A DNA stretch of 64,000 bases from Candidatus Heimdallarchaeota archaeon (GTDB lineage Archaea; Asgardarchaeota; Heimdallarchaeia; Heimdallarchaeales; Heimdallarchaeaceae), in the NCBI GenBank assembly GCA_016840095.1, contig JAEOSZ010000111.1, positions 32,001 to 96,000 of the forward strand. Direction: 5' to 3'. A model generated the notes under the pieces. That model did no database searches. It was not told where the DNA came from and saw only the letters and a list, made by a program, of their open reading frames with translations. Below are positions 3,501-39,043 of the stretch, one piece after another (the stretch's first letter is position 1; every line of letters starts with the position of its first letter). The position numbers and the translations under genes are program-made.

Positions 3501-4397
3501 ATGAAGAATACATGGCTGTTTCTTAATCAGATGTCTATCGATTCAACTGTTATTGATTCAAATACCACTGTAATTTTGGGATTTTCTGGTTATGGGTCAG
3601 TTGGAACAACTGTGCTTAATCATGTAGTAGAAGGGCTTAAAGTAGAATCAATTGGTTTTTGGGGAACCTTGTCATGGTTTCATAACGGAAATCTCGAGTC
3701 ACCCATTACTATGTATCAATTGGATGCAAAATCTGATGATCCAGAAGAAAAATTTGTGTTAGTGACTTCTAGATTACCAATACCAGTTGTAGGTTATAAT
3801 GCTCTTCCTGATGCTTTCTGGAAATGGATTACTCAGGAAATCTTATCTTGGGATGCAAAACGCTATATCATAATAGGTGGATTAAGAGAAGATGTTCGGA
3901 ATTCTTCAGATGATTCTTGGGTTACTTTAATCCCAACTAAAAAATATACAGAGCTCTTTGGTACTAAGCGAACTTTTAGAGATGACTTATCAATCAAAGG
4001 TCCAATTAGTTTTCTCCTCGCTGAAGGAACCGCTTATAGATATCCAGTTTTGAGTATACTATCCTACTGCAATACTTACGAAATTGACTTAGATGCTTCT
4101 TTAATGGCATTGAAAGAATTGGAAAAACTATTAAATTTGGATTTGGATTCAAAGGAGATAATTGAATTTGATTTTTCATTCCTTGAAAGCAATTTTGAAC
4201 TCTTCCAAGATGAAGAATTTGATGAAGAATATGATGAAGAATTTAATGAAGAATATGAAGAAGAATTTGATGAAGATTTCAAAAATTTTAGTAAACGAAA
4301 TGACTCACCACATGCTAACAAAAAATTCTCTTTCAATGTAAATTCATTTTTCTCAGAAACTAAGGATGAAAGAGAAGATCTAGAAAAATACAAATGA
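3501..4397 (+). CDS. PAC2-family proteasome assembly chaperone (PbaA/PbaB-like) with acidic tail
   Basis: N-terminal ILGFSGYGSVG, internal IIIGGL and GPISFLL; penultimate Tyr (..EKYK). Confidence 0.7.
   Translation: MKNTWLFLNQMSIDSTVIDSNTTVILGFSGYGSVGTTVLNHVVEGLKVESIGFWGTLSWFHNGNLESPITMYQLDAKSDDPEEKFVLVTSRLPIPVVGYNALPDAFWKWITQEILSWDAKRYIIIGGLREDVRNSSDDSWVTLIPTKKYTELFGTKRTFRDDLSIKGPISFLLAEGTAYRYPVLSILSYCNTYEIDLDASLMALKELEKLLNLDLDSKEIIEFDFSFLESNFELFQDEEFDEEYDEEFNEEYEEEFDEDFKNFSKRNDSPHANKKFSFNVNSFFSETKDEREDLEKYK
4209..4280 (+). repeat. Imperfect 12-bp tandem repeat encoding (D/N/E)EE(F/Y)
   Basis: gatgaagaattt / gatgaagaatat / gatgaagaattt / aatgaagaatat / gaagaagaattt / gatgaagatttc. Confidence 0.8.
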
Positions 4398-5321
4398 TTA
4401 TTTTATAATCTCTGTATAATCCTCTATTTCCTCAATGGATACAGCTCCAACAGGGCAAACTGCAACACAAATTCCACAAGTTTTGCAATAAACATTGTTT
4501 ATCTTAACTTTTCCATTATTCCTGTAAATTATCCCTTCAGGACAATGAAATAAACACTTTAAACATTCAATGCATTTTTCTTGATTTACTAATGCTTTTT
4601 CTTTACTCCAAGTACCAGTTTTCCTTTGCTTGGCAGCACCTGGTCCAATTTCTTTTCCATTCGGGAGAACAGATTTTGGAAGAATGGTTCCCAAAGGAAG
4701 TTCATCTACTGTAGGTCTCCATGGAGTTTTGTCTGAATAATTTTTTCCTCCTTTAGAAACACCGAGAGTAGTTTCTTCATATGCAATTCTTGCTATTTCT
4801 ACATTCTTTCTTGCCATTGTCTCCCCTAATCTTTTTCTAAAAACTGAATAGATACCCTTCTCAAGGTCTTCAAGTGTAATGATATCTGAGCTTTTTACTA
4901 GAGCTCCTAACATGGCAGTATTAGTTATAGGATCATCAAGAATGTCCTTTGCAATTTTTGTTGCATCGACTACACTTAAATTGATAGATTTAGAAAGAAC
5001 TATTTCTTCAGGTTTTTTAGTTGTATTAAAAACACCTATTCCTCCCAAGTTCAGCCCCTCAATAACATCAACTAAATCTGGAATATCTTCATTGAGAACA
5101 ACAACAATGTCTGGATTGTAAATCTGAGTTCTTCTGTAGATTTTCTTATCATTAATTCGGACAAAAGCTAAAACAAGTGAACCTCTTCTTTCAGCTCCAA
5201 AAGAAGGAAATGAAACAGCATACTTCCCCGCATAAAAAACAGCTTTTGCTAGAGCCCTAGATGCCAAGACTGAGCCAAAACCTCCACGCCCATGGAATCT
5301 AATTTCTAACATAACTGTCAC
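4398..5321 (-). CDS. 2-oxoacid:ferredoxin oxidoreductase fused gamma-delta subunit
   Basis: EIRFHGRGGFG, FGAERRG and NTAMLGAL (gamma); TGTW plus two CxxCxxCxxxCP ferredoxin motifs (delta). Confidence 0.9.
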   Translation of the reverse strand: MTVMLEIRFHGRGGFGSVLASRALAKAVFYAGKYAVSFPSFGAERRGSLVLAFVRINDKKIYRRTQIYNPDIVVVLNEDIPDLVDVIEGLNLGGIGVFNTTKKPEEIVLSKSINLSVVDATKIAKDILDDPITNTAMLGALVKSSDIITLEDLEKGIYSVFRKRLGETMARKNVEIARIAYEETTLGVSKGGKNYSDKTPWRPTVDELPLGTILPKSVLPNGKEIGPGAAKQRKTGTWSKEKALVNQEKCIECLKCLFHCPEGIIYRNNGKVKINNVYCKTCGICVAVCPVGAVSIEEIEDYTEIIK

Positions 5322-5374
5322 TAATCATCGAAAGCTTAAGTTTGTAATAAAATTATTGGAATAACATTAGCAAT

Positions 5375-5929
5375 TTAGTCTTTCATTTTGAAAGTATCTG
5401 AGTCATCCAACCATTTTTTGAATTCTGATGCAAGAGATATTTCATTTCTCTTAATTTCACTTAATTTGTTTAGATTTCCTTCCCTCTTTTGTTGTTCGAA
5501 GAATATTGGGATGATTTTGGTAAGATCGACAGCATATAGGTCAAAAAGAAATACTATTGGTTTGAAGTATTTTTCTAGAAACAATTCAAATTCATCAAAA
5601 CCAATCATTATTTGTTTGTAGATATCTCTGGAAACAATGAAATTGATTAGAGTTACTGTTTTATTTTTCAATCTTGAATCTTTTGCATCAAGGTTTTTCA
5701 GATTGATTGCAAAAGCAAGCAAGAATGTTTTTTCATTGATTTTAGTTGTAGCAAGCCCCTTAATTTCTTGATCTTGCATGATACCCATTAATGTGGGATA
5801 AGTAGTAAGCATGGTTTCTAATTTAACATCATCCAAATTTGATGCAAAGATTTCAAATCCTTGGTCAGCAAAATATACAATCGCAAACCCCTCTTTCTCT
5901 ACATTATCAGCATCAAGTAAAGTAGTCAA
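5375..5929 (-). CDS. Hypothetical protein, probable longin/uDENN-like domain
   Basis: Pattern FAIVYFADQG...LLAFAINLKNLDAKDSRL..TVTLINFIV resembles the cytoplasmic domain of ORF 44247-46046. Confidence 0.5.
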   Translation of the reverse strand: MTTLLDADNVEKEGFAIVYFADQGFEIFASNLDDVKLETMLTTYPTLMGIMQDQEIKGLATTKINEKTFLLAFAINLKNLDAKDSRLKNKTVTLINFIVSRDIYKQIMIGFDEFELFLEKYFKPIVFLFDLYAVDLTKIIPIFFEQQKREGNLNKLSEIKRNEISLASEFKKWLDDSDTFKMKD

Positions 5930-6034
5930 CCTAAATCATTATAGTTCATTTACAATGTTATAAAAACCCCAAAGTAAGAGCGATTAGGAAGAAATGTCAC
6001 AACTTATAAAAATGAATTATCTAACTTAATTGTA

Positions 6035-6745
6035 ATGGATAAAGTAATTGTAAAGAAAATGAAGAAGTTTAACAACACTCCTGATGATAGTAAAGTTGAG
6101 TTTTTGGAATTATTAGGGAATGAAGAAAAAAATTCTGATATCGTTGAATTTCTGGTAAAAATAATTGAATCAGATACTTATTATAAAATTCGAATTAAAG
6201 CAGTATTAACTCTGGCTAAATTTGAGGATGATGAAATTGCACAAAAATTAAGCGAAATTTATGCATATGAAAGAGATAGGAATGTTAGATTAGCAATTAC
6301 TGAATCACTTGGAGATATGTCAATTGAGATAGATGAAATGCTTCAAAATATTTTGAAAAATGACTTAAATGGAATTGTTAGAGCTGCAGCTCTTAGAAAA
6401 CTTCATGAAAGAAAAAAACTCAAGAAAGAAATATTAAGAAAACTGGTATTAGAAACTATCAATAAAGAGAAGGATACTTTTCCAAAACAAATAGCACTAG
6501 GTTTACTGCCTTCATATTCTACTCAAACTGTCTATAATACACTCAAAACTATTTATGATGATGAAACTAAGTTTAAAATGCGTTCACTCATTTATAAAAC
6601 AATTACAGAAGTAGCTTCTGCTTTAAACATAGAAGTTGGTGTTGAAGAACCTTCTAAACCCAAACCTACTCCTGAGCCTGGTAAAAAGAAAAAACGAAGA
6701 AAGAAAAAGAAAGATAAAGAGCCTGAAGAGCATTTGTTCTTCTAA
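6035..6745 (+). CDS. HEAT-repeat protein
   Basis: Repeats IRIKAVLTLA, VRLAITESLG, VRAAALRKL; Lys-rich tail. Confidence 0.8.
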   Translation: MDKVIVKKMKKFNNTPDDSKVEFLELLGNEEKNSDIVEFLVKIIESDTYYKIRIKAVLTLAKFEDDEIAQKLSEIYAYERDRNVRLAITESLGDMSIEIDEMLQNILKNDLNGIVRAAALRKLHERKKLKKEILRKLVLETINKEKDTFPKQIALGLLPSYSTQTVYNTLKTIYDDETKFKMRSLIYKTITEVASALNIEVGVEEPSKPKPTPEPGKKKKRRKKKKDKEPEEHLFF

Positions 6746-6751
6746 CAACAT

Positions 6752-7405
6752 TTACTGCTTTTCAGGTTTTTGGGCTACAACCCAGATATAACCCCTTCTG
6801 TCTTTTGGACTAACAAGTCGAACTTCTTTAGCTATTGAAAATATCTTCCAACCCTTTAATGCTTGTTTAATCTCAGTCATCGTAATAAAGCGAATTGGAG
6901 GTTCTGTTCTAAAATGAGGTTTTACATTACCACCAAAGAGAAAGAAACCTCCTTGTTTAACTGAATCAAGAAGTTCATACAATTTTGACAATGCATTATC
7001 ATAAAGATACTGAAGACATTGAATTGCTAAAATTACATCGTAGCTTTCAGGTTCCAAAACTAGATTTTCAATTGTCTCACATAATATGTCCATTTTTTCT
7101 TCTATTTTTAGTGCTTTAGCCCTTTTTTTAGTTAATTCTACTGCAGATTGAAGTATATCTATAGCTGTAACATGATAGCCCAGTTGAGCTAAATAACATG
7201 CATCAATTCCATCTCCAGTTGCTAAATCAAGAGCCTTTTTTCCAGTTACATCTTGATCATGAGTAAAAAATGAGAATTCTAGTGGAGCATAATGGACAAA
7301 GTGAGGTGAAAGTTTGTCTAGTTGTCCCTCAACTTGTTTCTTGTAAAGATTATCCCAACCTTCCATATATTTATCAGGATTTAATGTAGGGTACTTCTTT
7401 GTCAT
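6752..7405 (-). CDS. Class I SAM-dependent methyltransferase (TehB-like)
   Basis: ALDLATGDG motif I, VTAID, YDVIL. Confidence 0.85.
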   Translation of the reverse strand: MTKKYPTLNPDKYMEGWDNLYKKQVEGQLDKLSPHFVHYAPLEFSFFTHDQDVTGKKALDLATGDGIDACYLAQLGYHVTAIDILQSAVELTKKRAKALKIEEKMDILCETIENLVLEPESYDVILAIQCLQYLYDNALSKLYELLDSVKQGGFFLFGGNVKPHFRTEPPIRFITMTEIKQALKGWKIFSIAKEVRLVSPKDRRGYIWVVAQKPEKQ

Positions 7406-7436
7406 TATTCCAATTCACTATTAGATACTTATAACC

Positions 7437-7457
7437 TTCATGATATGAATTCATGAA
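7437..7457. promoter_or_regulatory. Palindromic candidate operator in divergent promoter
   Basis: TTCATGA-N7-TCATGAA with nested ATGAATTCAT (7445-7454). Confidence 0.4.
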
Positions 7458-7512
7458 CAAAATTATGGGAAAAAGTTTAGTATTCGAAATAGAATTTTAA
7501 TTGGGAGATATT

Positions 7513-9174
7513 ATGAATCTAAAAAGAAAATTTATTGTTTTTCTTCTAGCTATAATTGTTTTGAATCTATCATTTTCTTTTGCTGAAGCAAGAGAACAAG
7601 AAACTCCATCATCCATTCCGGAATTAGATTATTATTTCGAAGTTCCTTCTATGTACACAGAGATTACAATTCATGAAGATGGTTCTATAGACATTTATTA
7701 CAGAATGGAATTTTACACTCCATCGGAAGTAATAGATGTAATAGATATTGGTTTTCCAAACGTATACTACAAGTTGAAATCTGTTAAAGCTTGGTTAAAT
7801 GGAACAGAAATCCAGGATATAAGAAAAAGTGAAGTAGTAGATATTGGTGTAGAAGTCTGGCTTGATGAAGTTGGATATATTTATGCTGGCCAAACTGGTG
7901 TTTTTGAGATTGAATGCCACAACCCAAAAATGGTTTACAAAGATAATATAGACGGTTTAGCTTCGGTTGTATTCTATCAGACTTGGTACGGTTATGCATA
8001 TTCGTATGGCACAACAAACAGGACTGTTCGATTTTACTTTCCTGAAGATTTAACTAACATAGCAGAAGTAGATTATAGAATCGCAAGTGGGTCTGAATTT
8101 ACTAGTGTAGCGAGCTCTCCAGATGGACCATATGTACAATTTTCTACTAGTGGTAATCCATATGATTCCTATGATGTGGGTGTAGCTTTTCCTGAAGAAT
8201 ATTCAAAGACTTTCAATCCTTTCTGGACATTGACAGTTTGGGGAAGTCTTGTTAGATACCCTATGGCTACTGTTATAATTTCAATTATTATTTTTGCGAT
8301 AATTATCGCTATTATTAGAAGTATAAGAAATGCTAGAAGATATCTCCCACCTTCTATTAGTTCGTTAGGTGGAGGTGTAAGAGAGGATCTATCTCCATCT
8401 GAAGTAGCTCTCCTCTTTGAACGACCTCTAACGCAAGTAGCATCATTAATGCTTTTCGAACTGATGGAAAAAGGATATGCCCATATCCAAACAAAAGAAC
8501 CTGAATTAAGACTAGAAATTACAGCAACTGATCCAGTTATTGCTGATTTTTCAAAACCTCATAAAACATTAGCAATTGGTATAAGAAAAAGAAATAAAGA
8601 AGATGAGAAATGGAGAAGAGGTGCTGCTTCTGGAGCAATACCAAAAGAGCCAGTTCATCAAACAGATTTAAAAAATGCACTCGTTGCTCAAATAAAGAGT
8701 TTAGCTAAGAAAATGAAAGGATTCTCATCTAGAAAAACCAGAGATTATTATGAATCTATCATTGACAAAGCTTGGCAAGAAATGAGTAAAGAAAATCCTG
8801 AATTACAAAATGCTTTCCTCTGGATCATGGTAGATGAGAAGTATGAATCTAGGTTAGAAGAATATGGAAGAGAATACTATTATCCAAGATGGTATGTCTA
8901 TAGCTATTTCTACTATGTTGGAGGATCACGACCTTCAAGAACTTCTGGTAGTACATTTTTGAGAATAAACCAAAGAGGAAATATTTCACAAATAGCTCCT
9001 GTCCAATCATTCATGTCAGGATTAGTACATAAACCAGGGTCTTTACGAGATTCTGTAAAAAACATAACTCGACCAGCTCCTTCTAGATCAAGTGGTAGCA
9101 GTCGAGGTTATTCAGGAGGAGGGTGTGCTTGTGCATGTGCTTGTGCATGTGCTTGTGCTGGAGGTGGTAGATAA
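7513..9174 (+). CDS. DUF2207-like membrane protein with C-terminal (Cys-Ala)6-GGGR tail
   Basis: ATG 7513 after GGAGA; signal peptide; EITIHEDGSIDI N-domain; TM helix followed by RSIRNARR; LSPSEVALL; Ser/Gly-rich linker; GGGCACACACACACAGGGR-stop. Confidence 0.8.
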   Translation: MNLKRKFIVFLLAIIVLNLSFSFAEAREQETPSSIPELDYYFEVPSMYTEITIHEDGSIDIYYRMEFYTPSEVIDVIDIGFPNVYYKLKSVKAWLNGTEIQDIRKSEVVDIGVEVWLDEVGYIYAGQTGVFEIECHNPKMVYKDNIDGLASVVFYQTWYGYAYSYGTTNRTVRFYFPEDLTNIAEVDYRIASGSEFTSVASSPDGPYVQFSTSGNPYDSYDVGVAFPEEYSKTFNPFWTLTVWGSLVRYPMATVIISIIIFAIIIAIIRSIRNARRYLPPSISSLGGGVREDLSPSEVALLFERPLTQVASLMLFELMEKGYAHIQTKEPELRLEITATDPVIADFSKPHKTLAIGIRKRNKEDEKWRRGAASGAIPKEPVHQTDLKNALVAQIKSLAKKMKGFSSRKTRDYYESIIDKAWQEMSKENPELQNAFLWIMVDEKYESRLEEYGREYYYPRWYVYSYFYYVGGSRPSRTSGSTFLRINQRGNISQIAPVQSFMSGLVHKPGSLRDSVKNITRPAPSRSSGSSRGYSGGGCACACACACACAGGGR

Positions 9175-10478
9175 TGGTTAAATCTAAAGTATTCCATCAA
9201 AGAAATCTAGATACAACAGCTAGAATGCATCTAAGAAAAGAGAAAGGTGGAACTGGTATTTTACTAGTCAATGCCACTATGATTCTTCATCTTAATAAAA
9301 CAGCAACTGATTTTGTATCAAGAATAATTGCTGGAAAAAGTGATATTGATATTATTCTAGAAATGAAGAAGAAATATAGAGTTTCAGTAGAACAATTGGA
9401 GATTGATTTGGAAGATCTTAAAACAAAGATTAATCAGCTCATGACTACTCCCGATATAGATCCTGTACAGCATTTGGCACAAGATATCAATCCTTTATTT
9501 GAAACTCCTTTCTCAGCTCCTTTAAGAGTGGATTTAGCTTTAACCTACAAATGTAATAACAAATGCACTAAATGTTACGTGGAATCTACAAGGGAAATTA
9601 AAGAACTATCTACAGAGGAATGGAAACAAGTTCTCGATAATTTATGGGACATAGGAGTACCACATGTTACTTTTACTGGAGGAGAACCTACACTTAGAAA
9701 AGATTTGCCAGAATTGGTAGAATATGCAGAAGATTTGGGGATTATAACTGGTTTGATAACTAATGGAAGAGCACTAAAAGATAAAGATCTAGTAGATAAA
9801 CTTGTAACTGCTGGAATAGATCATTTTCAACTAACTATTGAGAGTCATGATTCGAAAATACATGATAAACTATCTGAAGCTGAAGGTGCATGGAAAGAAA
9901 CAGTTCAAGCTATAAAGAATATTGTTCCAACTCCAGTATATATTATGACTAATACAACCTTAACACCATTTAATATTAAAGACATAGAAAAAACAGTCGA
10001 ATTCTTGGGTTCATTGGGGATTGATCATTTCGCTGCAAACAGTATAATAAAATCAGGTGGAGGAAAGCAGGAAGAGTTTGCTCTTACTTTCGAAGAGTTA
10101 GATGATACTCTAACTAAAATTCTCAAAACAGCTGAAATGCAAAAAATGTCATTTATCTGGTATAGTCCTACAAGGTACTGTGATTTCAATCCAATTGAGA
10201 AAGGACTAGGGATGAAGCAATGTACTGCAGCTCATATTGCAATGGCTATAGAGCCTGATGGATCCGTACTTCCATGTCAAAGCTACTTTGAACCTTTAGG
10301 AAATATTCTTACAACCAAATGGAGAAAGATATGGAATCATAAAATTGCTAAAAATTTGCGTAAAATGAAATACCTGGACGAAGAATGTCTTGATTGTCCT
10401 GAGCGAGAATTATGTGGTGGTGGATGTCCACTGAATTATTCAGCTCCATCAAGTATTTGCAAGGAAGCATTTTCATGA
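9174..10478 (+). CDS. Radical SAM/SPASM enzyme with N-terminal PqqD/RRE-like domain
   Basis: LHLNKTA...KYRVSVEQLEIDL (PqqD-like); CNNKCTKC; FTGGEP; SPASM CTAA...DGSVLPC...CLDCPERELCGGGCP; TAATG overlap with upstream stop. Confidence 0.92.
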   Translation: MVKSKVFHQRNLDTTARMHLRKEKGGTGILLVNATMILHLNKTATDFVSRIIAGKSDIDIILEMKKKYRVSVEQLEIDLEDLKTKINQLMTTPDIDPVQHLAQDINPLFETPFSAPLRVDLALTYKCNNKCTKCYVESTREIKELSTEEWKQVLDNLWDIGVPHVTFTGGEPTLRKDLPELVEYAEDLGIITGLITNGRALKDKDLVDKLVTAGIDHFQLTIESHDSKIHDKLSEAEGAWKETVQAIKNIVPTPVYIMTNTTLTPFNIKDIEKTVEFLGSLGIDHFAANSIIKSGGGKQEEFALTFEELDDTLTKILKTAEMQKMSFIWYSPTRYCDFNPIEKGLGMKQCTAAHIAMAIEPDGSVLPCQSYFEPLGNILTTKWRKIWNHKIAKNLRKMKYLDEECLDCPERELCGGGCPLNYSAPSSICKEAFS

Positions 10479-11230
10479 AACCTAACAATGATGTTGATTG
10501 GGGATCAGAAATCCATGAGCAATTTGTTAGACAAGCACAATGGACAGAATCTATAAGGAACAAAATTTATCCACAAGTGAACCTGAGAGGAGCTAAAAAA
10601 GTTCTAGAAGTGGGCTGCGGAACAGGAGTAATCACAAACGAAATAAGAAAGAGAACACAGGCAAAAATAACAGCTATTGACTTAGACAAGGAAATGCTAC
10701 AAACAGCTGAAGAAAATGTGAAGAATGTCACATTTAAACAAGAGGAAGTAGAAAAACTATCAATGAGATCAAATACATTTGATGTAGTTTTATGTCAATA
10801 TCTCTTTCTATGGCTATCTGAACCTGAAAAAGCAATTAGTGAAATGAGTAGGGTTTGTAAGAAAAAAGGATTTGTTGTAGCTCTTGCAGAACCAGATTAT
10901 GGGGGGTGGATTGAATACCCGGATTTCCAATTGGGAAGACATCATATGAATTATCTAAAACGAGAAGGAGCAGATCCATTCATGGGAAGAAAGCTTAGGT
11001 ATCTGTTTGAAACTGCAGATCTTGAAACATCACTTGGGGTTATTGCTCAGACATGGGACAAAAAACATCTCTTAATGAACATTGAAGAAGAATGGAAGCG
11101 TGTTTACAGCTCAAAAATAATATCAGAGATGGAATATAAAGACATGATAAGGATGGAAAAAGAAGCAATTAATGAAAACAAAAGAACTATTTTCATGCCT
11201 GTTTTTTATGCAATAGGAAGAAAAAGGTAA
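10475..11230 (+). CDS. Class I SAM-dependent methyltransferase
   Basis: VLEVGCGTG, TAIDLD, FDVVLC; likely start is the ATGA overlap at 10475, not 10412. Confidence 0.88.
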   Translation: MKPNNDVDWGSEIHEQFVRQAQWTESIRNKIYPQVNLRGAKKVLEVGCGTGVITNEIRKRTQAKITAIDLDKEMLQTAEENVKNVTFKQEEVEKLSMRSNTFDVVLCQYLFLWLSEPEKAISEMSRVCKKKGFVVALAEPDYGGWIEYPDFQLGRHHMNYLKREGADPFMGRKLRYLFETADLETSLGVIAQTWDKKHLLMNIEEEWKRVYSSKIISEMEYKDMIRMEKEAINENKRTIFMPVFYAIGRKR

Positions 11231-11232
11231 GG

Positions 11233-11351
11233 TGGTCGGGCTTCCGTGATTTGAACACGGGACCGCTCGGTGACTGCTGACGACTTGATCACTGTTCACA
11301 AGTGTGTCTTCGACTACAGCCGAGTGCTCTAAGCCACTGAGCTAAAGCCCG
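11233..11351 (-). tRNA. tRNA-Tyr(GTA) with 42-nt canonical intron (11272-11313), CCA encoded
   Basis: Acceptor CGGGCTT/AAGCCCG-A-CCA (C1:G72); anticodon arm CTCGG-CTGTAG^A-CCGAG; T-arm GTTCAAATC; 4-bp central helix CTGT/GCAG of a relaxed bulge-helix-bulge. Confidence 0.95.
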
Positions 11352-11516
11352 TTATTTATCCACACATTTTTCCATTCTGCTTTGTTCTTAAATTTTTCTT
11401 TTCTATCTTGTTTGTTGAAATCTATTACAGAATGAAAAAATCCCCTTAAATTATCTGTTTTGTCCCCTAATTAAGTAAACTTAAAAATAAGTTCAATCAA
11501 ATTTTACTGGATTATT

Positions 11517-12080
11517 ATGAGTGAGTCTAACGTTCAACATTTCAAACTTTTAGAGAAGAAATTTGATATAGAAGAAGACATCTACAAGAAGCTTGGAAAC
11601 CTTCAAGACCTAAAGAAGAAAATTGCTAAAGAAAACAAGCATCGAGCTAGAGATAACCGAGAGCGAGAGGAACATCTCATCAAAAAGGCTGAGTATGAGA
11701 ATCAAGGTGTACCTGATAAAGCTTTGAAGAGTGAAGTTTCTGCTAAGAAGAAAGAAGCAGCTATTGCAGAGAAAGATTATAAAATCAAAGATCTGGAAAG
11801 AAAAATTCAGAAGGTCGAGGAAGAATTAGAGAAGCTTGAGTTTGAACTGAAAGAAGCAGAAGCAGATATTGATGCTCATGACATGGGAGAACCTACATCT
11901 AAATTTGAGCCAGAACCTGAACCTGAATACAAACCTGAACCTGCATCAGCTTATGTGCCATTAGAACCTACAGTTCTTGATGATGAAGATTATTCAGAAG
12001 ATGAAACCGATGATGAAGATTATTCAGAAGATGAAACTGATGATGAACCTCTAACAACAACATACGATGATTACAGCTAG
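11517..12080 (+). CDS. Coiled-coil protein with acidic low-complexity tail
   Basis: Heptad-rich K/E N-terminal 120 aa; PEPEP linker; DDEDYSEDET x2. Confidence 0.7.
   Translation: MSESNVQHFKLLEKKFDIEEDIYKKLGNLQDLKKKIAKENKHRARDNREREEHLIKKAEYENQGVPDKALKSEVSAKKKEAAIAEKDYKIKDLERKIQKVEEELEKLEFELKEAEADIDAHDMGEPTSKFEPEPEPEYKPEPASAYVPLEPTVLDDEDYSEDETDDEDYSEDETDDEPLTTTYDDYS
11979..12047 (+). repeat. 30-bp tandem duplication (2 copies plus partial)
   Basis: gatgatgaagattattcagaagatgaaac(c/t) at 11979 and 12009; partial at 12039. Confidence 0.9.
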
Positions 12081-12158
12081 TAATCTCATTCTATTTCTAT
12101 TTTTGTCTTTCCAAGAAATTTATTTATAGCTAAATTTTTCATTCACTAGGTGAATCTT

Positions 12159-12542
12159 ATGGATTTATATGGAACTGCCGATTGGAAAACAGAAAAACAT
12201 GTACCTGTTATTGAAGTAGCAGAGGTAATTAAAACAGGAGAAAAAACTCCAGTAACTGTTAGTGTTGGAAAAGAAATCGCACATCCAAACAAAACAGAAC
12301 ATCATATTTCTTGGATAAAACTAATGTTTTGGCCAGAAGGAGAAAAATACCCCTATCAACTTGGTCTTGCTAATTTTGATGCTCATGGAGCTTCAATAAA
12401 GGGACCAGACACCAGTGGTGTTTACTCAGAACCTTATGCAGTGTTTCAGTTAATTACTGATAAACCAGGTAAGCTAATTGCAACTTCTTATTGTAATATA
12501 CATGGTTTTTGGAAATATGAAAAAGAAGTAAAAGTAGAGTAA
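12159..12542 (+). CDS. sor: Superoxide reductase (neelaredoxin, class II)
   Basis: EKHVP, HPNKTEHHISWI and YCNIHG iron-ligand motifs. Confidence 0.92.
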   Translation: MDLYGTADWKTEKHVPVIEVAEVIKTGEKTPVTVSVGKEIAHPNKTEHHISWIKLMFWPEGEKYPYQLGLANFDAHGASIKGPDTSGVYSEPYAVFQLITDKPGKLIATSYCNIHGFWKYEKEVKVE

Positions 12543-12619
12543 AATCTCTTTTTTCTTTCTATTTTTTGTTTTATCTCTTTTTTCGGAAAAAACTTTAATG
12601 AGTTATTCAAGTTAGCAAT

Positions 12620-13387
12620 ATGGATTCTGATTCTAAAGAGACAGATGAAGCATTTGAACAGTTAATTTCAGAAGCAAAAAGACCTCTACATGGATGGGAT
12701 TTCTCTTTTGTTAACAATAGAGTAGTTTCAAGTCCACTAACTTGGAGCTATCATTCAGAGATCTTAAAATATATTAGAAAAGTAGATTCAGTATTAGATA
12801 TGGGTACTGGAGGAGGTGAGTTTTTCTCTTTACTAGAGCCTTTTCCTGAGAAAACCTATGCAACAGAAGCATATGCTCCTAACTATCCTATTGCAAAGAA
12901 AAAATTGGAACCTCTTGGAGTTAAAGTTGTTAAGATAGAGGAAGGTGGAAATCTTCCTTTTGAAGATAAATCATTTGAGCTAATAATTAACAGGCATGAA
13001 GAATACTCATCTAAAGAAGTATATAGAATTCTTACTGATGATGGAATATTCTTGACTCAACAAGTTGGTGGAACTAATGATAATTGGTTAAGAGAGTTCT
13101 TCTTAGGTGATGTAATTAGTGAGTATCAAGAATGGAATTTAGAATTTGCTAAGACTGAATTACAAAATAATGGCTTTAAATTACTTCAAGCAATGGAATG
13201 TTTTCCAAGAAAAAGAATCTTTGATGTTGGTGCAATCGTATTTTATCTACATGCTGCTCCATGGGAAGTACCAGATTTTACAGTAGAAAAATATAAGGAT
13301 AAATTATATGAATTACACCGTCAGATTCTGAACGAGGGATACATCGAATACTCGAGTCATAGATTTTTGATTAAAGCAATCAAATGA
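12620..13387 (+). CDS. Class I SAM-dependent methyltransferase
   Basis: GWDFS, LDMGTGGGE, FLTQQVG. Confidence 0.88.
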   Translation: MDSDSKETDEAFEQLISEAKRPLHGWDFSFVNNRVVSSPLTWSYHSEILKYIRKVDSVLDMGTGGGEFFSLLEPFPEKTYATEAYAPNYPIAKKKLEPLGVKVVKIEEGGNLPFEDKSFELIINRHEEYSSKEVYRILTDDGIFLTQQVGGTNDNWLREFFLGDVISEYQEWNLEFAKTELQNNGFKLLQAMECFPRKRIFDVGAIVFYLHAAPWEVPDFTVEKYKDKLYELHRQILNEGYIEYSSHRFLIKAIK

Positions 13388-13404
13388 TTCTAATTTAAAA
13401 AAGA

Positions 13405-13797
13405 TCAAGCTTTTTGTGTTCTATCAGAAGATACACCATAAATCAAAGAATCTAATATCCAACCAATTAAACTACCAATCATTGCTCCAAGTAGTCCTCC
13501 TATAATGGGGTTCCACAAACTCTGATCTCTTAAAATGCTACTGCTTTCTGCAACTCCAGGAAGTCCTCCTGATGTCATTGCTAAGATAGGAGCAATAAAA
13601 GCTAATGAGACAGCACCTATGATTGCAAATATTAGACAAAAAAAGAGAGTAAAGCGATAATTTGAAAGATCTTCCTCAATGTGATCTTTAAACTCTATTG
13701 GAGGTAATTCATCAAATTCTGAACCGTGGTAGAGGTAAATATCCTCAATTTCCTCTTCTAGGTACTCTTCAATTTCGAAGGAATCAGAATCTAACAT
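13405..13797 (-). CDS. Hypothetical two-TM membrane protein with acidic N-terminus
   Basis: Two hydrophobic helices after an E/D-rich segment. Confidence 0.6.
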   Translation of the reverse strand: MLDSDSFEIEEYLEEEIEDIYLYHGSEFDELPPIEFKDHIEEDLSNYRFTLFFCLIFAIIGAVSLAFIAPILAMTSGGLPGVAESSSILRDQSLWNPIIGGLLGAMIGSLIGWILDSLIYGVSSDRTQKA

Positions 13798-13946: not shown

Positions 13947-16900
13947 ATGAAGAGAAGAATATTTGGTTTATTCTTAGCATGCATGATTCTCTCACAAAGC
14001 TACTTCTTCTCAAATGCCACATTTGATGATTCTTCTGAACTCGAAATTCAATCCATGGGAGAAAGAGTTAGATGGAATTATGAATTAGACGATTGGATTG
14101 GAGGGTCACCAACTATAGCCGATTTTGATAGAGATGGCTATTTTGATATAATTGTACCATGCCTAGATGGTACTCTGCGTTGTTTGGATTATCAAGGAAA
14201 TGAAAAATGGTTTTTTGATGCAGGTAGTCCCGTCAGAAATCCACTCATTATTGACATTGATAATAATGGAGATCTAGAGATACTTTTTGGAACTAATGGA
14301 GGTAGAGTATATTGCATTGAACCTGAAGGGACATTAAAATGGAGAAAAACCCTTGATACTGCTGTATATGATATCAATGCTGTTGATTTAGACAATGATG
14401 GAGTTAGGGAAGTTATTGTAACATGTTGGAAGAATGTGAATTGTCTATCAACTGATGGTACTTTGTTGTGGAGTTTCTACTTAGAATCATTAGATATTAG
14501 CCATGAAATTGCCATAGGGGATGTGGACGGAGATAATCAATATGAAGTTTTAGTGGCAGATTATATCCCAAACGCTCATTACTCATCTCTCTATTGTCTA
14601 AACTCAACAGGTGGAGTTAGGTGGAAACGAGATTACAATCTAGGGTTAGGCAATTTAGTAACAGCAGATGTAGACTCAGATGGGAAAGATGAGATATTCA
14701 ATTCTAATTACAATGCAATTATGTGTATAAGTGAGAACGGACATGAAGTTTGGAGAACTACAACAGGAGCCTCTACTTTTAATAAAATTTCAGTTTGTGA
14801 TATAGATAATGATTCAGTGTTGGAACTTGTGTTTTATCGAAGTAGTGGAATGATTCAACATATTAATGGAATAACAGGAGCTTTAGAAAGGACCTTAGAT
14901 ATATATTATAGTACTCATGGTAATAGTTTTAGTATAGCTGATCTTGACAATAATGGAAAATATGAGTATATTTATACTACGTGGGATGAAAAAAAATTAG
15001 TTTGTTTAGATGATCAAGGAAATGATAAGTGGGTTCATTCCGCAGTTTATTGGCCAACAGCTGTACCATGTGTGGTGGATCTGGACAATGATGGAGTATT
15101 TGAAATTGTATTTGGTCAATCTAAAATTAATGATTTGTCCAGAGTTACCTGTATAGAACTTTCTGATGTAAGTGAATCAGGAAATGCTCCTTGGTATTGT
15201 TGTGATGGAACAGTAGCAAGAACAAATTTTGGAGATTATGATTTTGATCTGCTAGATACTGTAACTGAAAGATTCTATGGAACAGATGAAACAAACCCTG
15301 ACTCGGATTCAGATGGTCTATTAGATGGGATAGAAGTATTGAGTATTTATAGTGATCCTACAAACCCTGACTCGGATTCAGATGGTCTATTAGATGGCTG
15401 GGAAATTGAATATGGTCTGGATCCAATAGTGAGTGATGGGGCGCTAGATTTTGATAATGATGGTTTAACAAATATAGACGAAGTAATGTATGGAACAGAT
15501 GTCTTTTCAAATGATACTGACTCAGACGATTTAAGTGATTATGATGAGATATTCATCTATTTCACTAATCCAGTTGAAAATGATACAGATTCGGACCTTC
15601 TAAATGATTATGAAGAAATTTTTACATATTTTACGTTACCAGATAATAATGATACTGATAATGACATAATGTTAGATGGGTGGGAGACGATAAATAGCTT
15701 AGATCCTTTAACAAATGATACAGACTTAGATCCAGATTTGGATAATCTAATTAACCTGTACGAATTCCAACTTAAATCTAATCCCCAAAACAATGACACG
15801 GACTCTGATTATTTAGCTGATGATGAAGAAGTGTACATCTACAATACGGATTTACTAAATGATGATACAGATTTTGATAACTTAATAGATGGTGATGAGG
15901 TTTTTATTCACCTGACTCTACCAAATGACAATGATACAGATGATGATTCAATAATTGATGGGTGGGAGGTCCTATATGGTCTGAATCCCTTAGTCAATGA
16001 TTCATATCTGGATGATGATTCAGATGCTTTAGATAATTTCAACGAATTTGTGTATAATTGTAATCCAAATTTGAACGATACAGATTCTGACAATCTTCTT
16101 GATGGAGAAGAAGTTCTGGTATATGGTTTAAATCCTCTATCTAATGATACAGATTCAGATCTTTTATTTGATTATGATGAACTATTTATTTATTCTACAG
16201 ATCCTGGTTTAAATGATACAGATTCAGATAACTGTCCAGATGGCTGGGAAATTTTCTGTGGACTCAATCCGTTTCTGAATGATTCCTATTCAGATCCTGA
16301 TATTGATGGACTAACTAATATTCAAGAATATCAATACTCAACTCTTCCCTTAGTTAATGATACAGATTCAGATTTGATGCCTGATGGTTGGGAAATAACC
16401 TATGATTTGAATCCTCTAGCAATTGATTCACTCTACGACTTGGATCTTGATGGGTTATCTAATTATTTAGAATTCATTTTTGGATCGAATCCTCAAGAAA
16501 TTGATAGTGACAATGATATAATGGATGACTTTTTCGAATATACTTATGGTCTTGATCCAATGAACCATTCAGATGCTTTAGATGATGCTGATGACGATGG
16601 ATTGATCAATCTGAAGGAATTTTACGAAGGATTTTCACCAATTAACAACGATACAGATTCCGATAGCATGCCTGATGCCTGGGAATATTATAACAGTCTT
16701 AATGCAACAGATGCATCTGATGCTTCAGAAGATTTCGATGGAGATGGGCTAATTAATTCATTAGAGTTCTATTATGGAACCCAACCTGATGATGTAGATT
16801 CTGATGACGATGGTTTTTCAGATTTTAATGAAATCAATAAAGGTTTTGATCCTCTTGATCCTAGTTCTAATCCCGCCATCTCCCGTAGAAATATGTGGAT

Positions 16901-17435
16901 AGCTCTGAATCTTTCTGCTTCTTCACTTCTAGCACTTCTTCTTTACTATATAATTTGGAATAGGAGAAAACAGAAGAAAAAACTTCTAGTTGAGAAAGAG
17001 AAGATGATGGGTTCATTAGGCTTTACTTCGATGGAAGAAATGAATCGAATACAATCCTTAGGTTTTATTTCCAAGAGTGAGTATAACACGATTAAATCAA
17101 TGGGTTTCGATTCTAAACTTGAATATTTGACAGATCAATTAGGTTATTTACTTCTTGATTCATGGCTGAAGGCCGAAGAGCATCATACATATAAGACACA
17201 AATTGCTAAAACTAAATCCACTGCCAAGCTTGAAGAACTTCGAGAAAAAATTGAAGATATTAGCAAATTTCTCTCAAAAACTCAATATTTGATAGACGAT
17301 TATGGTTTGTTGGAAGATGGGTTATTCAATGATTCTTGGATATCATCAATTAGCAATGTTCAAAACATGAGAGTTGAAGTTGAAAAAACCCTTAATCTTT
17401 TGGATGAAAAAATATCTTCCCTTAAGAAGAAATAG
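13947..17435 (+). CDS. Cell-surface protein: FG-GAP-like beta-propeller, long thrombospondin type-3-like Ca-binding repeat stalk, TM, cytoplasmic tail
   Basis: Signal peptide; repeated DxDxDGxxE(I/V) blades; many D(T/S)DxDxLxDxxE...P repeats; TM MWIALNLSASSLLALLLYYIIW then RRKQKKK. Confidence 0.85.
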   Translation: MKRRIFGLFLACMILSQSYFFSNATFDDSSELEIQSMGERVRWNYELDDWIGGSPTIADFDRDGYFDIIVPCLDGTLRCLDYQGNEKWFFDAGSPVRNPLIIDIDNNGDLEILFGTNGGRVYCIEPEGTLKWRKTLDTAVYDINAVDLDNDGVREVIVTCWKNVNCLSTDGTLLWSFYLESLDISHEIAIGDVDGDNQYEVLVADYIPNAHYSSLYCLNSTGGVRWKRDYNLGLGNLVTADVDSDGKDEIFNSNYNAIMCISENGHEVWRTTTGASTFNKISVCDIDNDSVLELVFYRSSGMIQHINGITGALERTLDIYYSTHGNSFSIADLDNNGKYEYIYTTWDEKKLVCLDDQGNDKWVHSAVYWPTAVPCVVDLDNDGVFEIVFGQSKINDLSRVTCIELSDVSESGNAPWYCCDGTVARTNFGDYDFDLLDTVTERFYGTDETNPDSDSDGLLDGIEVLSIYSDPTNPDSDSDGLLDGWEIEYGLDPIVSDGALDFDNDGLTNIDEVMYGTDVFSNDTDSDDLSDYDEIFIYFTNPVENDTDSDLLNDYEEIFTYFTLPDNNDTDNDIMLDGWETINSLDPLTNDTDLDPDLDNLINLYEFQLKSNPQNNDTDSDYLADDEEVYIYNTDLLNDDTDFDNLIDGDEVFIHLTLPNDNDTDDDSIIDGWEVLYGLNPLVNDSYLDDDSDALDNFNEFVYNCNPNLNDTDSDNLLDGEEVLVYGLNPLSNDTDSDLLFDYDELFIYSTDPGLNDTDSDNCPDGWEIFCGLNPFLNDSYSDPDIDGLTNIQEYQYSTLPLVNDTDSDLMPDGWEITYDLNPLAIDSLYDLDLDGLSNYLEFIFGSNPQEIDSDNDIMDDFFEYTYGLDPMNHSDALDDADDDGLINLKEFYEGFSPINNDTDSDSMPDAWEYYNSLNATDASDASEDFDGDGLINSLEFYYGTQPDDVDSDDDGFSDFNEINKGFDPLDPSSNPAISRRNMWIALNLSASSLLALLLYYIIWNRRKQKKKLLVEKEKMMGSLGFTSMEEMNRIQSLGFISKSEYNTIKSMGFDSKLEYLTDQLGYLLLDSWLKAEEHHTYKTQIAKTKSTAKLEELREKIEDISKFLSKTQYLIDDYGLLEDGLFNDSWISSISNVQNMRVEVEKTLNLLDEKISSLKKK
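15291..15397 (+). repeat. Exact 38-bp duplication at 69-bp spacing within the TSP3-like stalk
   Basis: acaaaccctgactcggattcagatggtctattagatgg at 15291-15328 and 15360-15397. Confidence 0.85.
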
Positions 17436-31871: not shown

Positions 31872-32092
31872 TTTACATTTCTCCTTAATATAATCATGAG
31901 TAACGACATACTCTTTTATGTAGTTATTGGGGGTTACATATATCTTTTTTGGAAAAAACTAAAAAACAGAGAAAGCGATTTTCATTATTTTGCAAAGGAG
32001 TATTCCTTCTAACAAGGGTATCTTTACAAGAACTACCCACCTTTTCGGCAGTAGAAATGACCTCTACTTCTTATGGAAAAAAAAACTGTGAT

Positions 32093-37932: not shown

Positions 37933-38589
37933 ATGTCAGATGATAATGTGTTCATTGTTCTTTATGATTTATCTGACAAAAAGTTAACTGAATCTTTATA
38001 CGATTATAGTGATATAATAATTAAACATTGGAAATTTCTTAAGGCATTAAAGAGCGAAAAAAAATTGCTATTCTCTGGTACAACTCTTGATTCATTCCTT
38101 GAATTTGCAATCATTAAAACTGATACAAGAGAAGAAGCACAAAGACTAGTAAGCAATGATCCTTTTGTCTATAATCGATTACTCCAAGTTTTTCTTTATG
38201 AATTTAGAACCTCTCTTCTAACAAAGGAAAATACTATAGAAGTATTGGAAGAGGAATTTTTAGATATTGAATCTATTTATGATGAAGATACAGAATTCTA
38301 TATGGGAACCATAACAGCTAGGCCTACTTTTATTAATGATATGACAGAAGAAGAAGAAAAAATAATGAGTGATCATTTTGAACATCTGAAAAAGAAATTT
38401 GATAATAAGCAACTATTACTCGCAGGACCAATTTTATCTGAAGGGCAATTTGGAGTATCAGTATTTACAGCTGAAAATCTGAATGAGGCAGATGAATTTG
38501 TGCAAAATGATCCAGCTGTTATTGAAGGAATTATGAAACCTGAGGTTCATCCTTTTCGAATTTTTCTAATTGAGAAAAATAAGGATTAA
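37933..38589 (+). CDS. Tandem YciI-like domain protein
   Basis: Two H..L.....LL.G...NDP repeats. Confidence 0.8.
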   Translation: MSDDNVFIVLYDLSDKKLTESLYDYSDIIIKHWKFLKALKSEKKLLFSGTTLDSFLEFAIIKTDTREEAQRLVSNDPFVYNRLLQVFLYEFRTSLLTKENTIEVLEEEFLDIESIYDEDTEFYMGTITARPTFINDMTEEEEKIMSDHFEHLKKKFDNKQLLLAGPILSEGQFGVSVFTAENLNEADEFVQNDPAVIEGIMKPEVHPFRIFLIEKNKD

Positions 38590-38996
38590 GAGAATTTTGC
38601 TTCTATCTCTTTTATTGCATCTTTCATTATTTGGTTAACTTCATCAGCAAGCTCATTTAGTTTATCCACTTTAACAACGCTCATAGCTTCCTTAGGATTT
38701 AATGCAGAAACAACAATCTTTCCATTTTCGTTTTCATAGATAATAACATTACATGGTAATAATGCACCTATTTCTGGAACTAGAACAATAGCTTTGTGTG
38801 CAAATGGAGGATTACATGCTCCAAGAATTTTGTATGGACGAATATCTGCATCAATTTTCTTCTTCAAAGTTTCTTTAGCATCTATTTCAGTTAGTATTCC
38901 AAATCCATGATCTGCTAGCACTTTGCGTGTGACCTTTTCAACCTCACTGAATTTATCATAACCAACATTGAGTTCTGTGGAAATAACAAGTGACAT
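38586..38996 (-). CDS. DUF302 family protein
   Basis: GFGILTEID, ILGACNP, IGALLPCNV; start likely 38996. Confidence 0.88.
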   Translation of the reverse strand: MSLVISTELNVGYDKFSEVEKVTRKVLADHGFGILTEIDAKETLKKKIDADIRPYKILGACNPPFAHKAIVLVPEIGALLPCNVIIYENENGKIVVSALNPKEAMSVVKVDKLNELADEVNQIMKDAIKEIEAKFS

Positions 38997-39043
38997 AAAT
39001 AATTGTATGTCACCCAACCAAATAAGTTTTTACATTAGAAAGA

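Follow-up and report, generated by a model that had tools for sequence, protein, structure and literature searches.

A Conserved Cassette of a Cys-Ala-Tailed Membrane Protein and an RRE-Radical SAM-SPASM Enzyme in a Heimdallarchaeal Genome

Introduction

Radical S-adenosylmethionine (SAM)/SPASM enzymes that carry a RiPP recognition element (RRE; RiPP, peptide made by the ribosome and then modified post-translationally) are, to our knowledge, known almost only for the small peptide natural products that they make. A large Cys-rich protein was first clearly shown to undergo such chemistry in 2026 (PMC13692751): CrpC of Methanococcus voltae, an RRE-radical SAM-SPASM enzyme with three 4Fe-4S clusters, installs ranthionines on CrpA. 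Here, we describe three adjacent genes of a Candidatus Heimdallarchaeota archaeon (GenBank assembly GCA_016840095.1, contig JAEOSZ010000111.1). They lie in a stretch of 64,000 nucleotides (contig positions 32,001 to 96,000, forward strand), which is called the window below. Gene 1 encodes a membrane protein that ends in a Cys-Ala (CA) repeat (P0001), gene 2 an RRE-radical SAM-SPASM enzyme (P0002), and gene 3 a methyltransferase (P0003). This cassette is a real, sharply defined and widespread RRE-radical SAM-SPASM system that is undescribed in the sources searched. Indeed, none of its components in the window reaches the curated cut-off of an NCBIfam model, the five proteins that Ornatilinea apprima encodes in its cassette likewise reach no model (June 2026), and a full-text literature search on the tail motif and on radical SAM with Cys-Ala or DUF2207 found no description of the cassette. 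The best explanation is that we are looking at the Heimdallarchaeal form of a widespread protein-maturation system found in many anaerobic bacteria and archaea.

Several described systems come close in one respect or another. As in the present cassette, CrpC is an archaeal enzyme (TIGR04463 family) encoded beside the gene of a large Cys-rich protein (PMC13692751). CrpA, however, has ten 17-residue repeats with C-x-x-Q/D motifs and an N-terminal leader-like region, and it is described in the main text of that paper without membrane association (PMC13692751), whereas gene 1 encodes a membrane protein with one short C-terminal CA repeat. Neither CA tails nor Asgard archaea are mentioned in the same main text. 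The hairpin sactipeptide systems StsB/StsA (with the RRE StsC) and BlaB/BlaA also combine a radical SAM/SPASM enzyme and an RRE with an alternating Cys motif (PMC10288494). In StsA, three sactionines formed by StsB (Cys2-Gly15, Cys4-Gly13 and Cys6-Gly11) tie a CxCxC strand to a GxGxG strand (PMC10288494), and in the tail of gene 1, too, the Cys repeat is flanked on each side by a run of Gly. On the other hand, StsA is a free precursor of small size that carries a leader, while the gene 1 repeat ends a 553-residue membrane protein; the RRE of StsB is separate, while that of gene 2 is fused; and, unlike in StsA, the spacer residues of gene 1 are Ala and the bacterial cassette tails have two Cys blocks (CACACACA-G-CACACA).

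SkfB, AlbA, CteB and PapB share with gene 2 the domain order RRE, radical SAM, SPASM or twitch, but they act on short peptides that are exported and vary in their cores, unlike gene 1. PqqE/PqqA and MftC/MftA resemble the cassette in pairing a radical SAM/SPASM enzyme and its RRE partner with a short core, invariant and located at the C-terminus of the substrate or close to it, in a single copy per genome and with a wide spread among taxa. Cys sulfur takes no part in their chemistry (C-C coupling for PqqA, oxidative decarboxylation and C-C coupling for MftA), and their products are excised by peptidases, whereas no peptidase is conserved in the CA-tail cassette. QhpC is a small periplasmic subunit with Asp/Glu acceptors and a quinone cofactor. 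It has no detectable homology to gene 1, and the associated genes differ. QhpC receives several intra-chain crosslinks from the radical SAM enzyme QhpD as a protein substrate, and it is a precedent for a modification kept in a mature functional protein (PMC7876137). None of the StsB/StsA, CrpC/CrpA and QhpD/QhpC pairs involves a membrane protein or a CA repeat.

The Three-Gene Cassette

The source genome is a Heimdallarchaeaceae metagenome-assembled genome (MAG) of 3.44 Mb in 165 contigs and is 89% complete. The three genes run head to tail on the + strand at 7513-11230 of the window, in the order tail protein, enzyme, methyltransferase (Table 1). Read directly in the DNA, genes 1 and 2 overlap at TAATG (9172-9176) and genes 2 and 3 at ATGA (10475-10478); gene 2 is translationally coupled to gene 1. 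An initial annotation, made from the sequence alone, had reported this chain of stop/start overlaps and the absence of a short precursor peptide open reading frame (ORF) nearby, and both observations hold: no Cys-rich small ORF with a repeat or start codon was found within 5000-13500 of the window. Its description of the three products, with a signal peptide, ectodomain, transmembrane segment, cytoplasmic domain and GGG-(CA)6-GGGR end in the first, a PqqD/RRE-like N-domain, CxxxCxxC and a SPASM Cys set in the second and a SAM methyltransferase in the third, is likewise borne out by the matches and models given below.

Linkage of the Tail and the Enzyme across Genomes

To survey the tail independently of the protein that carries it, one genome per species (GTDB) was scanned with a back-translated (CA)3GGGR-stop pattern that ignores all other parts of the sequence. 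This yielded at least 120 stretches, 80 of which were examined as 8-kb blocks. The enzyme was counted as present when a P0002 homolog (E <= 1e-5) was found on the same strand. A tail-ending ORF occurs in 75/80 blocks, and an enzyme homolog accompanies it in 63 of these 75, against a chance expectation of about 0.7% of 8-kb blocks (three ORFs in the Heimdallarchaeal genome itself match P0002 at 1e-5). Five enzyme-less blocks were traced to their genomes, and all five genomes hold an ortholog (1e-117 to 7e-192). For three Planctomycetota exceptions, the block offsets read as the order enzyme, paralog, tail gene, with the enzyme beyond the block edge. Moreover, the enzyme or a paralog adjoins the tail gene in each of five metagenomic loci that were reached through distant homologs.

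The relatives of the source genome give the same picture. Of the 40 that we compared, 24 belong to the same genus and 16 to three other families within the order. Tail gene and enzyme occur together in 22 of the same-genus genomes and are both missing in the other two (G010 and G019), and neither was found in the 16 genomes of the other families. In every genome in which both ends were assembled, they lie side by side. Since these 40 genomes are kin, their identical presence and absence of the two genes is a pattern and not a statistic. The radical SAM neighbor that the initial annotation had proposed to look for beside other CA-tail proteins is thus found in the scanned blocks, in the traced exceptions, in the metagenomic loci and in the relatives.

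The scanned blocks come mostly from Anaerolineae and other Chloroflexota. Other bacterial blocks belong to Planctomycetota, Acidobacteriota, Aminicenantes, Hydrogenedentota, Fermentibacterota, Bacillota and Pseudomonadota, and the archaeal ones to Methanomassiliicoccales, other Thermoplasmatota, Heimdallarchaeota and Hodarchaeota. One block (L080) is from a named strain and not from a MAG, Ornatilinea apprima P3M-1, which we take to be in culture. The order tail gene, enzyme, methyltransferase is that of Heimdallarchaeota and Hodarchaeota. In Thermoplasmatota, a zinc-ribbon membrane protein gene precedes the tail gene and the enzyme, and the methyltransferase gene is convergent, while the Anaerolineae order is zinc-ribbon protein, tail gene, enzyme, a paralog of the enzyme without the radical SAM Cys (pseudo-radical SAM), methyltransferase. 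In a quick, unrooted maximum-likelihood tree of the enzyme, the archaeal sequences form one clade (Shimodaira-Hasegawa approximate likelihood-ratio support 92), as do the Asgard sequences (96). The Heimdallarchaeal copy is therefore no obvious recent import from Chloroflexota, and a recent transfer from that source is not favored.

The Cys-Ala Tail

Gene 1 ends ...SRGYSGGG-CACACACACACA-GGGR, with Cys at positions 538, 540, 542, 544, 546 and 548, and its DNA closes with TGT GCT TGT GCA TGT GCT TGT GCA TGT GCT TGT GCT GGA GGT GGT AGA TAA. A (CA)>=3 repeat is found once in the six-frame translation of the whole genome, at this very tail, which is thus no chance feature. A first homology search recovered 25 proteins, and all the full-length ones, down to 26% identity, end in CACACA(CA)(G/S)CACACAGGGR or a near variant; the tail is retained even where the body of the protein is only 26-30% identical. 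A family profile search of 1.84 billion cluster representatives (clusters at 50% identity) gave 1,468 clusters for the gene 1 family at E <= 1e-3 and 997 at E <= 1e-10. The CA tail is present in 134 of the 146 new top representatives, and in 134/134 of those counted as full-length; 11 others break off before the C-terminal region and thus have no readable tail, and one ends in a short CACAGGGR. The number of Cys per tail ranges from five to nine (mode seven), and 124 of the 134 tails end in GGGR. In the family alignment, the tail columns are invariant. Heimdallarchaeal tails are an unbroken (CA)5-6, while most bacterial tails consist of two blocks parted by one Gly or Ser. All the detectable homologs of the membrane protein keep a Cys-X tail, including the divergent P0028, whose locus adjoins the enzyme.

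At the DNA level, the 80 tails from 80 species come in 80 distinct versions, in which all Cys, Ala, Gly and Arg codons are used. Because synonymous codons vary so freely, the constraint must act on the peptide and not on a DNA repeat, and an explanation of the tail as a DNA microsatellite was rejected.

One metagenomic contig (L019) carries two tandem CA-tail genes, at 4253-5962 (569 amino acids) and 6001-7881 (626 amino acids). It also encodes a radical SAM/SPASM enzyme, a pseudo-radical SAM protein, a zinc-ribbon protein, a methyltransferase and a 234-residue protein with a weak Met_synt_B12-like match.

The Enzyme Encoded by Gene 2

Gene 2 matches the Pfam families Radical_SAM (PF04055, 9.7e-28) and SPASM (PF13186, 4.5e-10). 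In its AlphaFold2 model (predicted local distance difference test score, pLDDT, 88; predicted template modeling score, pTM, 0.89), an RRE is followed by a TIM-like radical SAM core and then by the SPASM domain. The identification of the N-terminal domain as an RRE is based on family-level matches to PqqD, which were obtained for 37/51 orthologs (best E 3.9e-9, Pfam), and on superposition. The best structural match is SkfB (Z 30.0, model residues 16-420), followed by SuiB (Z 27.8-28.1, model residues 7-426 on chain residues 3-427), and both alignments run through the N-terminal RRE-type domains of these enzymes. Other structural matches include anSME (Z 25.9), EpeE (Z 18.7) and the lipid-modifying radical SAM enzyme GDGT-MAS. 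By sequence, the nearest solved proteins are SkfB (2e-31), PqqE (3.5e-28), SuiB and CteB.

The CxxxCxxC motif is complete, and so is the SPASM Cys set: C336, C350-x12-G-x4-C368, C405-x2-C408-x5-C414-x3-C418 and C429. Positions C350, C368, C405, C408, C414 and C418 are invariant in the orthologs and C336 nearly so, and C429 is present in P0002. Judged by their number, these eight Cys would be enough for two fully ligated auxiliary 4Fe-4S clusters. From its motif, its SPASM domain, its RRE and the adjacent Cys-bearing gene, the gene 2 product is predicted to belong to the broad class of RRE-fused radical SAM/SPASM maturases.

Within this class, no curated family takes it in. When scores were compared with each NCBIfam model's own cut-off, in bits, gene 2 stayed below those of SkfB (TIGR04403, 115.2/300), StsB (NF045574, 100.7/625 in spite of an E-value of 8.6e-29), AlbA (NF012164, 79.7/850), PapB (NF047865, 72.8/340), PqqE (TIGR02109, 141.9/381, E 2.3e-41), MftC (TIGR03962, 93.3/265, E 1.6e-26) and NirJ2 (TIGR04055, 146.8/500). 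The Ornatilinea apprima ortholog also falls short of these curated radical SAM cut-offs. The CrpC family, TIGR04463, is absent from the best 25 of the 78 NCBIfam matches of P0002, and its score is thus below 70.7 bits.

The Membrane Protein Encoded by Gene 1

The AlphaFold2 model of gene 1 (pLDDT 84.8) has an N-terminal hydrophobic helix, an extracytoplasmic domain, a single transmembrane helix and a conserved domain (Table 1), the last of which carries the family motifs YLPP..EG.GIKRGLTAVEAA and KMKGFS..ET..YY (family alignment). Two helices follow at residues 495-519, and the end of the protein is disordered in the model (529-553). A conserved motif, here LRDSVKNITRPAP, ends 15 residues before the first Cys of the tail; its family consensus is FT..xT..TNPxP, and it is a candidate leader-like recognition element for the RRE. 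The basic residues after the transmembrane helix would, by the positive-inside rule, place the rest of the protein in the cytoplasm, where the tail would be within reach of an iron-sulfur (Fe-S) enzyme. According to the model, then, gene 1 encodes a single-pass membrane protein whose C-terminal tail, carried on a Ser/Gly linker, is predicted to lie on the cytoplasmic side.

Using Foldseek with the whole-protein model, the best solved-structure matches of the ectodomain were ribophorin I/Ost1 (8b6l_O, 8.7e-10; 6ezn_A), ahead of the N-domains of M1 aminopeptidases. The overall template modeling score (TM-score) is low (0.26) because the model holds several domains. Among the structural neighbors in the atlas are DUF2207 clusters, with TM-scores of 0.40-0.41 for the whole 553-residue model, its domains not folded apart. 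DUF2207/YciQ-like and TIGR04222 proteins appear similar in overall architecture, with a signal peptide, beta-sandwich ectodomain, transmembrane helix, cytoplasmic region and low-complexity Gly-rich C-terminus, although, unlike for gene 1, no dedicated radical SAM partner of these families turned up in the literature searched.

The initial annotation had linked gene 1 to DUF2207, and of this a probable resemblance in overall architecture and fold neighbors is left, while the family label does not stand. No Pfam family could be assigned to gene 1, the best match being DUF2207_C (PF20990) at E 0.17 and 12 bits, against a gathering score of 33. Among 55 relatives, five match DUF2207_C (best 0.036) and one matches DUF2207 PF09972 (0.049). 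Membership in DUF2207 was accordingly rejected, as was that in TIGR04222 ('near_uncomplex'), for which gene 1 scores 15.8 bits against 43 (E 0.0085) over residues 257-325 only.

The Methyltransferase and Other Partners

Gene 3 encodes a SAM-dependent methyltransferase (Pfam Methyltransf_11, 1.5e-23) and is a conserved accessory of the cassette. The orthologous methyltransferase cluster was found in 52/80 scanned blocks and in three of the five metagenomic loci.

A zinc-ribbon membrane protein is a further partner in 43/80 scanned blocks. In bacteria and Thermoplasmatota, its gene lies directly upstream of the tail gene (examples in Table 1), and the protein has two transmembrane helices, a cytoplasmic ribbon (CxxCG ... 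CPYCG) and a nearly invariant E-(E/D)-P-K-W at the C-terminus; it reaches no curated family cut-off. When the bacterial-type profile was run against the Heimdallarchaeal genome, no convincing match was obtained (best 1e-3, spurious).

A second locus of the same genome, on contig C11 at 38174-42899 (L143: 4220-8900), encodes a 137-residue protein with two transmembrane helices and a zinc ribbon. Heimdallarchaeum aukensis L061 has its homolog (38.5% identity, 8e-29) immediately upstream of the tail gene. On contig C11, the zinc-ribbon protein is followed by three membrane proteins, paralogous to one another, that end in RING-like zinc fingers, and then by a close paralog of P0003 (5e-69). This content suggests that the accessories of the cassette may be split over two loci in this genus.

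Finally, the pseudo-radical SAM paralog, which lacks CxxxCxxC, stands beside 24 of the 27 judgeable enzymes that have lost the last SPASM Cys, while 12 of the 16 enzymes that keep this Cys, like P0002, have no such neighbor. The enzymes that lack the Cys come from Anaerolineae and allies (loci including L024, L026, L053, L063, L080 and L098), and the split largely follows phylogeny. The CxxCx5Cx3C motif is kept in only 6/41 pseudo-radical SAM proteins. Once the tail protein, radical SAM, methyltransferase and zinc-ribbon families are set aside, the remaining clusters in the blocks are antisense or lineage-restricted, with no conserved protease or exporter among them.

The Proposed Modification and Its Alternatives

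On the evidence of gene context and homology, the gene 2 enzyme probably, though by no means surely, modifies the gene 1 tail covalently. The initial annotation had already taken the tail to be the substrate, and this reading is supported: of the findings that it had named as refuting, three were looked for (CA-tail homologs mostly without the radical SAM neighbor, an N-domain of another fold, a separate small precursor), and none was obtained. By analogy with the systems described above, Cys thioether crosslinks would be the most likely modification, a narrower proposal that we hold with less assurance than modification as such. The RRE of gene 2 would bind the C-terminal part of gene 1, perhaps at the conserved T-x-P-x-P motif that lies 15 residues ahead of the repeat's first Cys, and the radical SAM site, aided by the two auxiliary clusters, would abstract hydrogen atoms within the repeat. 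Cys sulfurs could then be joined to neighboring carbons (C-alpha or C-beta of Ala or Gly) as thioether links, and the protein would retain a crosslinked end, compact and shaped like a ladder or a hairpin. The methyltransferase of gene 3 presumably acts on the modified tail, where it might methylate the sulfur, the C-terminal carboxylate or the Arg. A co-fold of P0002 with residues 474-553 of P0001, run without controls, gave an ipSAE of 0.02 against a mark of 0.32.

Several points weigh against this proposal. The argument for modification is one of context and homology, and, as no curated radical SAM cut-off is reached, the reaction type cannot be transferred by orthology. The PqqD match of P0002 itself is weak (E 0.0028, 18.4 bits against a gathering score of 23.4). 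The methyltransferase is missing from some loci, for example that of Heimdallarchaeum aukensis L061, and gene 3 has a paralog elsewhere in the same genome, so its tie to the tail is weaker than that of the enzyme. We know of no exact precedent for a repeat without the usual acceptors (Asp, Glu, Asn, Thr, Phe or a Gly strand). Moreover, CxCxC is a classic metal or Fe-S ligand pattern, and the tail could work unmodified.

This last point leads to the main alternative, in which the tail is not a substrate and Fe-S, Zn, Cu or a metalloid is bound by its six to nine alternating Cys. The radical SAM/SPASM enzyme and the tail protein would then be partners in cluster hand-over, redox sensing or membrane electron transfer, with the tail covalently unchanged. 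Besides the ligand pattern, such a role would fit the invariance of the tail, since most RiPP cores are variable, and the frequent presence of the zinc-ribbon membrane protein as an extra partner; in addition, the last SPASM Cys is absent from many Anaerolineae enzymes, which could conceivably take a thiolate ligand from outside. We nevertheless consider it unlikely. A plain metal site needs no dedicated radical SAM enzyme that is gained and lost alongside it, and this enzyme retains the RRE, a domain known to grip peptide substrates, as well as the SAM-cleaving CxxxCxxC, intact in 51/51 orthologs. Its nearest relatives, furthermore, all covalently modify peptides or proteins.

A different reaction on the same substrate is more doubtful still. 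Conversion of Cys to formylglycine or dehydroalanine, epimerization of Ala or Cys, C-methylation and Cys-Cys or C-C coupling all come into consideration, and in some variants the methyltransferase would cap free thiols by S-methylation. Formylglycine chemistry is suggested by anSME, which acts on whole proteins at Cys and which, besides its structural match to gene 2, is the best sequence match for the SPASM part, but the sulfatase motif C-x-(P/A)-x-R is absent from the tail. The epimerase EpeE is also among the structural matches. Neither anSME nor EpeE has an RRE, however, and the best whole-chain matches are the RRE-bearing SkfB and SuiB. That gene 2 reaches no curated family threshold and that Ala is no known preferred thioether acceptor leave room for other reactions, yet the Cys-rich substrates encoded beside RRE-radical SAM-SPASM enzymes have so far given thioethers.

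It is very improbable that the enzyme acts elsewhere (on a small peptide, tetrapyrrole, lipid or other molecule, with the tail protein as anchor, regulator or chaperone) or that the tail is cut off and exported as a RiPP: the cofactor-making NirJ2, AhbD and PqqE are among the best NCBIfam scores and GDGT-MAS is among the structural matches, but no conserved small ORF was found, the cassette has no conserved protease or exporter, gene 2 has an RRE, the Cys-X tail persists in every detectable homolog of the membrane protein, even in P0028 with its adjacent enzyme, and the core is invariant across phyla, unlike in antibiotics. Release of the tail by proteolysis, which the initial annotation had also entertained, is unlikely for the same two reasons, the missing protease or exporter and the invariant core.

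A core that does not vary, in a gene that is single-copy and spread over many phyla, is easier to reconcile with a protein-derived functional group (PqqA, MftA and QhpC being examples) than with an antibiotic. We suggest, tentatively, that the (CA)n-GGGR end could become a new protein-borne functional group tethered to the cytoplasmic face of the membrane. It might be a ladder of several thioethers, or else a sulfur-rich module, crosslinked and methylated, for metal binding or electron transport. Such a group would form a separate class of post-translational modification, conserved from Chloroflexota and Planctomycetota as far as Thermoplasmatota and Asgard archaea, and its Cys-Ala chemistry would be unprecedented among sacti- and ranthipeptides.

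Modification of the tail by the gene 2 enzyme would, if true, extend RRE-radical SAM-SPASM chemistry to the tail of a full-size membrane protein and to about 1,500 sequence clusters from anaerobes of many bacterial and archaeal phyla, among them the Asgard archaea, which are relatives of eukaryotes. It would also add a new substrate motif, an alternating Cys-Ala run ending in GGGR and conserved nearly to the residue. This degree of conservation suggests an important cellular role, for example in redox, metal or membrane-signaling biology.

Features of the Locus and Its Surroundings

Table 1. Positions of the cassette genes and of their features in the window, with zinc-ribbon partner genes from other loci (locus:positions).
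Feature	Residues	Position	Strand	Length and basis
Gene 1, tail protein P0001		7513-9174	+	553 amino acids; ORF and translation
Signal peptide or N-terminal hydrophobic helix, MNLKRKFIVFLLAIIVLNLSFSFAEA	1-26	7513-7590	+	Sequence; model helix 3-22; putative cleavage site
Extracytoplasmic beta-sandwich domain	42-227	7636-8193	+	AlphaFold2, pLDDT >90
Transmembrane helix, then basic stretch RSIRNARRY	250-275	8260-8337	+	AlphaFold2 helix
Conserved domain, predicted cytoplasmic	280-470	8350-8922	+	Family alignment; AlphaFold2, pLDDT 88-98, folded part ~295-470
Conserved motif, LRDSVKNITRPAP	511-523	9043-9081	+	Column conservation in family alignment
Tail, GGG-CACACACACACA-GGGR (proposed substrate)	535-553	9115-9171	+	DNA read directly
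Gene 2, RRE-radical SAM-SPASM enzyme P0002		9174-10478	+	434 amino acids; Pfam, AlphaFold2 model
N-terminal RRE, PqqD-like winged helix		9189-9446	+	Four strands 6-40, helices 42-52, 57-67, 72-91 (model)
Radical SAM motif C127-NNK-C131-TK-C134, then invariant Y135		9552-9575	+	Sequence; invariant in 51 orthologs
SPASM domain, eight Cys		10179-10460	+	Aligned to anSME, CteB and SuiB SPASM motifs
Gene 3, class I SAM-dependent methyltransferase P0003		10475-11230	+	251 amino acids; Pfam Methyltransf_11
Zinc-ribbon partner genes		L013:5551-5916, L016:5603-6007, L019:185-526, L020:5570-5932, L022:2024-2362

Two further class I methyltransferase genes flank the cassette, at 6752-7405 (-) and 12620-13387 (+), which makes three within 7 kb. 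The upstream one, divergent from gene 1, has a TehB match (2.8e-9), and neither is part of the conserved cassette in other genomes. A desulfoferrodoxin-type superoxide reductase (12150-12542, +; 4.4e-31) and a POR gamma-ferredoxin fusion (4398-5321, -) are also encoded close by, which is consistent with an anaerobic lifestyle. Finally, the gene at 13947-17435 (+) encodes 1,162 residues, with an FG-GAP/beta-propeller region at the N-terminus, a long array of Asp-rich D-x-D-x-D-type repeats, a transmembrane segment and a coiled cytoplasmic end; its product is probably a large protein of the cell surface.

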